NCBI RefSeq assembly: GCF_030013205.1
Contig: NZ_CP122648.1
Reading direction: 5' to 3' (one strand)
From: Escherichia coli
GTDB taxonomy: Bacteria; Pseudomonadota; Gammaproteobacteria; Enterobacterales; Enterobacteriaceae
DNA length: 64,000 bases
The notes beneath the pieces were generated by a model. That model was not told the DNA's origin, ran no database searches, and saw only the letters and a list, made by a program, of their open reading frames with translations. Of the stretch, positions 4,368 through 5,037 are shown piece after piece. Position numbers and translations under genes: made by a program. Position 1 is the first letter of the stretch. Each line of letters begins with the position of its first letter.

Positions 4368-5037
4368 TTAACCGAGAAGGTCTTTTGCGGTGAGTTCTGT
4401 CAGCGATGAGAGTTTGACGTTTGCTAATACAAAACGTGGATCATTTTGCGCTTCTGGCGCAGGAACGACGATGGAACGCATGCGGGCTGCTTTAGAGGCG
4501 ATCATGCCATTTACTGAATCTTCCAGCGCTACGCAGGTCAGTGGGTCAACGCCCAGTTTTGCTGCGCAGTCAAGATATACTTGCGGATGCGGCTTGCTGT
4601 AAGGCAATTTTTCAGCCGAGGCGAGGGCATCGAAACTGTCGCGTAAGTCAAACATGGTCAACACTTTTTCCAACATATGTAGTGGTGACGCGGAGGCCAG
4701 TCCCACCAATAAACCTTGTTCTTTACATAACGCAACGGCTTCACGCACGCCTGGCAATAATGGGCGTGTCTCTTCAACCAGTGAAATGGCACGAGCAATA
4801 ACCCGTTCTACTACTTCCTGACGGCTTGGCCCATTCCAGGGTTGCCGGGCGTACCAAAGATCGACCACGCATATCGATGCGTAAACCTAAAGTGTCCGGC
4901 AGCTCGTTACGACGGGAGATATCCACCCCCAGGCTTGCCATCACATCCAGTTCAGCTCGATCCCATAAAGGTTCTGAGTCGATAAGTAATCCATCCATAT
5001 CAAAAATTGCAGCAAGAATCTGACGCGGGGTTGACAT
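4368..5037 (-). pseudogene. hxpB: hxpB/yniC (2-deoxyglucose-6-phosphate phosphatase, HAD family) with apparent +1 frameshift
   Basis: Two track ORFs in different frames (4774..5037 with N-term MSTPRQILAAIFDMDGLLIDSEPLWDR; 4368..4868 continuing VDLWYARQPWNGPSRQEVVER...) together cover one HAD phosphatase; frame breaks after ...RIDM. Confidence 0.7.

Follow-up and report, generated by a model that had tools for sequence, protein, structure and literature searches.

A single-base insertion that probably inactivates hxpB in a porcine Escherichia coli lineage and recurs in unrelated strains

In Escherichia coli K-12 and O157, hxpB (yniC) encodes a hexitol / 2-deoxyglucose-6-phosphate phosphatase of the HAD superfamily. 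In the stretch of E. coli DNA analysed here (64,000 nucleotides of contig NZ_CP122648.1, hereafter the window), the gene occupies the same locus, in the same synteny (yniA-yniB-hxpB-ydjM-tcyP), and appears to be broken. The first-pass annotation of the window had described an hxpB spread over two open reading frames (ORFs) in different frames, the frame changing right after ...GLRIDM through a single extra base, and had left the choice between a pseudogene and a base-call error. The locus raises the question of whether this extra base is real, what it does to the protein and how it came about.

The description of the lesion was accurate. In the window, overlapping ORFs of 87 and 166 amino acids (aa) lie in different frames, with the junction GAT ATG C GTG GTC between them. 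The 87-aa ORF corresponds to positions 1-56 of the NF008087 profile (NCBIfam HxpB equivalog, 222 positions), with 93.5 bits, and the 166-aa ORF to positions 57-221, with 282.4 bits. The curated cut-off of this profile is 191 bits; the C-terminal fragment alone exceeds it, and the two fragments are colinear and jointly cover the entire profile. According to this comparison, zero residues are lost at the junction and the break falls directly after ...GLRIDM. The comparison with other E. coli hxpB alleles that the first-pass annotation had suggested was run at the base level with the closest intact ones (CFSAN018748 and NY1601), which do not have the C: the sole extra base within hxpB is the C at 4869, in agreement with the codon reading and the coordinates initially proposed. 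Removing this base restores an ORF of 222 aa, and the repaired HxpB is matched over residues 1-222 by the YniC structure (PDB 1TE2, E = 4e-143). Relative to hxpB of K-12 and O157, the window therefore differs by an extra C after codon 56, with motif I and motifs II-IV in separate frames. The intact sequence at this site is ATGGTGGTC and the form with the extra C is ATGCGTGG; the C is flanked by a G on each side and lies outside any homopolymer run. Table 1 gives the positions of the different elements.

Table 1. Elements of the interrupted hxpB gene in the window
Element	Position	Strand	Description
hxpB (yniC) pseudogene	4368..5037	-	670 nt instead of 669; ATG at 5035-5037, TAA at 4368-4370; 'hexitol phosphatase HxpB, frameshifted' according to PGAP in identical genomes
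Inserted base, C on the gene strand (G on the + strand)	4869	-	Between codon 56 (ATG) and codon 57 (GTG), from alignment with intact alleles
N-terminal fragment ORF, 87 aa	4774..5037	-	HxpB residues 1-56, with the catalytic DMDG motif I, then 31 residues out of frame
C-terminal fragment ORF, 166 aa from GTG	4368..4868	-	HxpB residues 57-222; without ribosome-binding site, probably untranslated
Perfect inverted repeat due to the insertion	4867..4882	-	ACGCAT (4882-4877), loop CGAT (4876-4873), ATGCGT (4872-4867)
Hotspot core ATG(C)GTGGTCGA	4861..4872	-	Wild-type TGGTGGT offers two TG^GT sites; C enters the first in the window (variant A) and the second, 3 nt downstream, in other strains (variant B)
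Native Shine-Dalgarno AAGGAGAGG of hxpB, intact	5043..5051	-	Anti-SD duplex of -8.7 kcal/mol
Intrinsic terminator of hxpB, intact	4335..4366	-	14-bp stem, 4-nt loop, T-rich tail

Then, we investigated the distribution of the insertion. Seventeen complete RefSeq genomes contain an 81-mer covering it at 100% identity, and every one of them is that of a pig or wild boar isolate; the records checked among these 17 are of Belgian, French, Japanese and South Korean origin. In every carrier record checked, hxpB bears the PGAP label 'frameshifted'. Among the public assemblies of NCBI, ENA and Logan, 106 contigs have the exact 87-aa product as a called protein. Positions 1-25000 of the window match strain ETEC1748 perfectly and the other members of the lineage near-perfectly. 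Strains W13-16 and P15-25 are O139:H1 edema-disease strains (PMC8798679). In W13-16, 50 kb of syntenic annotation contain a single CDS flagged 'frameshifted', namely hxpB, so this assembly is not noisy; the other pseudogenes in these 50 kb are prophage or IS remnants. The intact relatives CFSAN018748 (swine, Denmark) and NY1601 are just 2-4 SNPs away over 2.6 kb. The insertion therefore arose within this lineage and was then inherited. Given the agreement among independent assemblies, the lesion is almost certainly real. The broader reading, namely a genuine 1-bp insertion that is inherited by the porcine O139:H1 edema-disease/ETEC lineage, inactivates hxpB and has recurred in unrelated E. coli, is in our opinion probable. 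In this lineage, the hxpB lesion is an ordinary lineage-specific pseudogene, which is already annotated as such.

Carriage of the insertion extends to other backgrounds. The 90%-identity cluster of the 87-aa fragment has 12 members, all of which result from a C at the same two adjacent positions. Seven of the 12, on differing allele backgrounds, have the junction of the window (IDM/RGRS, the slash marking the break; 207 contigs, including NCTC assemblies), and the other five a second junction (IDMV/RRS; 21 contigs). In the first form, variant A, the gene reads ATG-C-GTGGTC (GATATGCGTGGTC), with the C in the first TG^GT site of TGGTGGT. In the second, variant B, it reads ATGGTG-C-GTC (GATATGGTGCGTC), with the C in the second TG^GT site, 3 nt downstream. 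A 33-mer of variant A, each 28-nt seed of which spans the insertion, was detected in 19 out of 5,426 complete genomes: the 17 pig isolates, A20 (bat, Mexico) and cS51a (human, Malawi), the hxpB genes of the latter two being annotated 'frameshifted' as well. The corresponding 33-mer of variant B is absent from the complete genomes, and this variant is known only from short-read contigs (L014-L018). Over 821 nt, cS51a is the same as many intact genomes bar this one base, and the nearest relative of A20 is intact. The complete genomes contain three independent carrier lineages of variant A, the nearest relatives being intact in each.

Over 2.6 kb, variant A occurs on at least seven backgrounds, 15-49 SNPs apart, and variant B on at least five. 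The variant A locus of cS51a (L013) and a variant B locus from Logan (SRR33799597; L014) are separated by just 5 SNPs over this distance, and this pair is the clearest single sign of repeated mutation at hxpB codons 56-58. The closest flanking SNPs, 22 nt upstream and 30 nt downstream of the site, occur in several differing combinations among carriers; a spread by recombination would therefore need tracts of less than about 50 nt. It is thus very probable that the identical C insertion recurred independently in unrelated E. coli (homoplasy). As the same insertion and its sister have arisen repeatedly in unrelated strains, the site behaves as a mutational hotspot.

We then considered the consequence for the protein. 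From the native start, translation would give an 87-aa product with the catalytic Asp motif and only half of the cap domain, while HAD motifs II-IV would stay in the other frame, behind a GTG without ribosome-binding site. Because the native Shine-Dalgarno sequence, start codon and terminator are intact, the transcript should give this 87-aa product. No uninterrupted ORF of about 222 aa is present in the hxpB of the window: DMDG is on the 87-aa fragment and GLASAS, SKPHP and EDSVNG are on the 166-aa fragment, hence on different chains. In the HAD superfamily, the DxD of motif I provides the nucleophile, and the motif assignment places the break inside the cap domain. The first-pass annotation had noted that the 166 downstream codons could still be translated from the GTG, a suggestion that finds no support: the GTG at 4868 has no Shine-Dalgarno sequence, its anti-SD duplex reaches -2.7 kcal/mol vs. 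-8.7 kcal/mol at the native start, and its first two bases are inside the newly formed hairpin. The out-of-frame stretch contains no slippery heptamer, no run of four or more identical bases, no internal Shine-Dalgarno sequence and no stop-codon-stimulated shift site, so neither programmed recoding nor transcriptional slippage is supported. From these sequence features, we infer a loss of function, active HxpB presumably not being made, and hxpB is most likely dead. HxpB is a non-essential sugar-phosphate phosphatase, and its loss is therefore tolerable; a paralogue may compensate for it.

Three explanations would leave the strain with a working enzyme. Single-base indels are the commonest assembly error, and the true sequence could be an intact single ORF. 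This second branch of the initial alternative fell, and the pseudogene stood: an identical base in 17 independently sequenced complete genomes, from differing laboratories and at least four countries, with its product on 106 further contigs, at a site without homopolymer and in the sole 'frameshifted' CDS in 50 kb, is very hard to reconcile with a base-call error, and carriage tracks the lineage while close intact relatives are free of it. We consider such an error extremely improbable. HxpB activity could otherwise be kept by a functional split gene, with the 166-aa part translated from the GTG or with fragments that complement each other. Both halves are indeed still open frames, no residue is lost at the junction, and the promoter region, the Shine-Dalgarno sequence and the terminator are intact. 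However, the GTG is poorly equipped for initiation and partly buried in the new hairpin, gene callers preferred other, shorter downstream ORFs (129 or 112 aa), and variant B has no start codon at the junction and yet recurs. From general knowledge of HAD enzymes, a DxD and motifs II-IV on separate chains, with a break in the middle of the cap domain, also argue against complementation, and a functional split gene seems highly unlikely. Finally, nothing except the existence of a +1 interruption speaks for full-length HxpB being made by programmed +1 ribosomal frameshifting or transcriptional slippage. Beyond the missing shift signals, about 99.6% of E. coli have an uninterrupted gene (the variant A interruption being limited to 19 of the 5,426 complete genomes), orthologues do not share the interruption, and an insertion at the other position has the same outcome. 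Recoding is the least credible of the three, its probability being close to nil. A genuine, inactivating insertion remains our preferred reading, and the question becomes that of its origin.

The wild-type sequence suggests how the C could be templated. ACGCAT-CGAT-ATG-GT is an imperfect inverted repeat, the sole flaw of which is a bulged G. In variant A, the two arms become 6 bp long and 100% complementary, 4 nt apart. Variant B also yields TGCGT, the complement of ACGCA, i.e. 5 bp of perfect pairing, or 7 bp with a G.T pair. As DNA, the wild type has a folding energy of -2.2 kcal/mol (z = -1.0), compared with -5.8 kcal/mol for variant A (z = -3.0) and -5.1 kcal/mol for variant B. Among the 1,948 possible 1-nt insertions in hxpB, 2.2% give a stem of at least 6 bp and 7.3% a stem of at least 5 bp. 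The former represent 42 possible insertions, including variant A, and no recurrence was observed for the rest. The statistical support for the quasi-palindrome (P of only about 0.02-0.07) is suggestive, the tests of variants A and B not being independent since the wild type is TGGTGGT.

Mutations at quasi-palindromes "universally perfect the palindromic sequence" and form hotspots in E. coli (PMC6357072, PMC7202029). At hxpB, the nascent coding-sense strand would terminate in ...ATG (or ...GTG), its end would fold back and pair with CAT (or CA) in the ACGCAT located upstream, and G-C-A would be copied as C-G-T. On return to the template, GT would be re-aligned, and the result would be an additional C within a now perfect hairpin. 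These steps predict precisely the observed products of variants A and B, with a short priming stem (3 bp for variant A, 2 bp for variant B). Template switching at the quasi-palindrome is the most likely mechanism for the insertion, and we give this cause about even credence. Weighing against it are the shortness of the quasi-palindrome and its priming stem, the lack of recurrence among the other stem-forming insertions, the missing reciprocal correction and the orientation of the gene. In the W13-16 annotation, hxpB and thrS-infC-rplT-pheST run in opposite directions, so that the nascent strand of coding sense is probably made as the lagging strand. For quasi-palindrome mutagenesis, a leading-strand bias is reported, although both strands occur (PMC6357072, PMC7202029), and the probable lagging-strand origin runs against this usual, non-exclusive bias. 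The reciprocal correction, in which the bulged G is lost (ACGCAT to ACCAT), was searched for as a 33-mer, and none of the 5,426 complete genomes contains it; its absence could be due to the known strand asymmetry. No complex co-mutation was seen at the insertion in the sampled loci. The hairpin loop region lies within a perfect ATCGAT palindrome (window 4873-4878), and a second TCGAT is found 12 nt downstream of it, in GTCGATC, with a Dam GATC site.

We also looked for other ways in which hxpB has been broken, using a search for truncated HxpB proteins (98 aa or less, centred on residue 56), which shows other lesions but not their relative rates. One null allele (P0039) has two separate 1-G deletions, in the TGG of codon 61 and the GGG of codon 68 (L021/L022, Logan). 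It was found on 173 contigs, all of 5-20 kb, and this size suggests IS-rich genomes such as those of Shigella. Another null allele (P0033), with 46 member sequences, carries a 20-bp deletion in codons 58-64 (L023, ENA metagenome scaffold); the deletion begins directly behind ATGGTGG, where the insertion hotspot also lies. In addition, many singleton hxpB fragments occur in related contigs (Escherichia/Shigella-type). Neither P0039 nor P0033 occurs in any of the 5,426 complete E. coli genomes. E. coli can evidently dispense with hxpB.

The recurrence itself could have other sources. Since recombination occurs in E. coli and no variation is found in the 52 nt around the site, a single ancient origin followed by spread among lineages by homologous recombination is formally conceivable with very short imported tracts. 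Nevertheless, the carriers differ in their combinations of the SNPs that border these 52 nt, cS51a departs from many intact genomes by one base in 821 nt, and the different insertion 3 nt away is likewise present on several backgrounds; a single origin is accordingly judged very unlikely. If the C did arise repeatedly, its donor could be a direct repeat, the nascent strand misaligning on the GTGCGTG located about 120 nt downstream in hxpB, which shares TGCGTG with variant A and GTGCGT with variant B. This donor is 120 nt off, a distance at which chance alone should produce 6-nt matches, and the inverted arm is much closer, at 4-9 nt; mutations of this kind are documented to proceed by intramolecular fold-back (PMC6357072, PMC7202029). 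The direct repeat is a weaker alternative than the quasi-palindrome, and an unlikely one. The recurrence could also reflect mainly positive selection for the loss of HxpB in certain niches, and not a raised mutation rate. The other null alleles (173 contigs with 1-G deletions, 46 sequences with the 20-bp deletion, and the singleton fragments) go in this direction, as does the fixation of the insertion in a successful pathogen clone. However, any null would serve, and yet all 12 cluster members show the same non-homopolymer base at two adjacent positions; moreover, variant A, in just 19 of 5,426 complete genomes, shows no sign of a sweep. Selection as the main cause is rather doubtful, even if it is the least improbable of these three explanations, and it is compatible with a hotspot and not an alternative to it.

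A wider scenario would combine a mutational hotspot with selection: ACGCAT-CGAT-ATGGTGGT would be a natural quasi-palindrome hotspot that repeatedly silences hxpB throughout E. coli, and the loss of the phosphatase would be adaptive in some hosts, explaining the fixation in the porcine O139:H1/ETEC clone, which is found worldwide. We put this forward as speculation, with little expectation that all of it is correct. If true, it would be a population-scale case of mutational bias steering convergent gene loss. Template switching at quasi-palindromes is stimulated by AZT, 5-azacytidine and fluoroquinolones (PMC6357072, PMC7202029). Agents of this type, e.g. the veterinary fluoroquinolone enrofloxacin, may raise the rate at the hotspot.

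The hxpB site resembles several known systems. It shares with the quasi-palindrome hotspots studied by the Lovett laboratory (the natural hotspot of thyA, QP5 and QP6 of lacZ) an imperfect repeat that is perfected by a recurrent, site-specific mutation. The template-switch model was reportedly proposed by Ripley in 1982, and its original cases are said to have given frameshifts, as in hxpB. Compared with the lacZ reporters, the arms at hxpB are short (6 bp vs. an 18-bp quasi-palindrome; PMC6357072, PMC7202029), the evidence consists of population homoplasy rather than measured rates, and the reciprocal deletion was not seen. As in the lineage-specific pseudogenes of host-restricted pathogenic E. 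coli and Shigella, a dispensable metabolic gene carries a small indel that is fixed in a clonal pathogen. In contrast to these pseudogenes, hxpB stands alone as a 'frameshifted' gene in 50 kb, with no sign of genome-wide decay, and its lesion is also sporadic in commensal-type backgrounds. With phase-variable contingency loci, hxpB has in common a recurrent frameshift at a fixed position that switches the gene off. These loci vary by slipped-strand mispairing at simple repeats, whereas hxpB has no repeat tract, its reversion would be untemplated and there was no sign of ON/OFF mixtures. Phase variation was therefore rejected for hxpB, the inserted C being flanked by G and G, with no tract.

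In the literature searched, there was no mention of an hxpB/yniC lesion or hotspot. What is new here is the hxpB site as a recurrent insertion hotspot that fits quasi-palindrome templating, and the added value is modest but real. For annotation, the hxpB frameshift is genuine and should be kept as a pseudogene, not 'corrected'. The extra C is also a convenient single-base marker for the porcine O139:H1/ETEC lineage. Carriers are probably without HxpB, and their handling of hexitol phosphates and their sensitivity to 2-deoxyglucose may change. For mutation biology, the site is a natural candidate, validated at the population level, for template-switch mutagenesis at a quasi-palindrome whose arms are very short. 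More generally, neither shared ancestry nor a sequencing artefact need follow from identical non-homopolymer indels in unrelated strains.

Finally, several observations concern the surroundings of the gene. In the 3' arm of the terminator stem of hxpB (window 4343), K_EC180 is one C short of the CCCC present in the window and in the rest of the lineage; either a real difference in the length of this homopolymer or a mistake in the K_EC180 assembly could be responsible. From synteny with W13-16, the hxsDBCA genes (His-Xaa-Ser radical-SAM system) and the type III effector gene espL1 adjoin the thrS-pheT core, at about 20160-23560 and 9420-11320 of the window. The same synteny places at about 23900-40000 a degraded P2/P4-like prophage, whose pseudogenes are all 'incomplete' remnants with no frameshifts. 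This region includes truncated tail, tape-measure and Ea22-like genes, together with an IS66-family element (ISCro1), a replication endonuclease gene and ParM-type partition genes.
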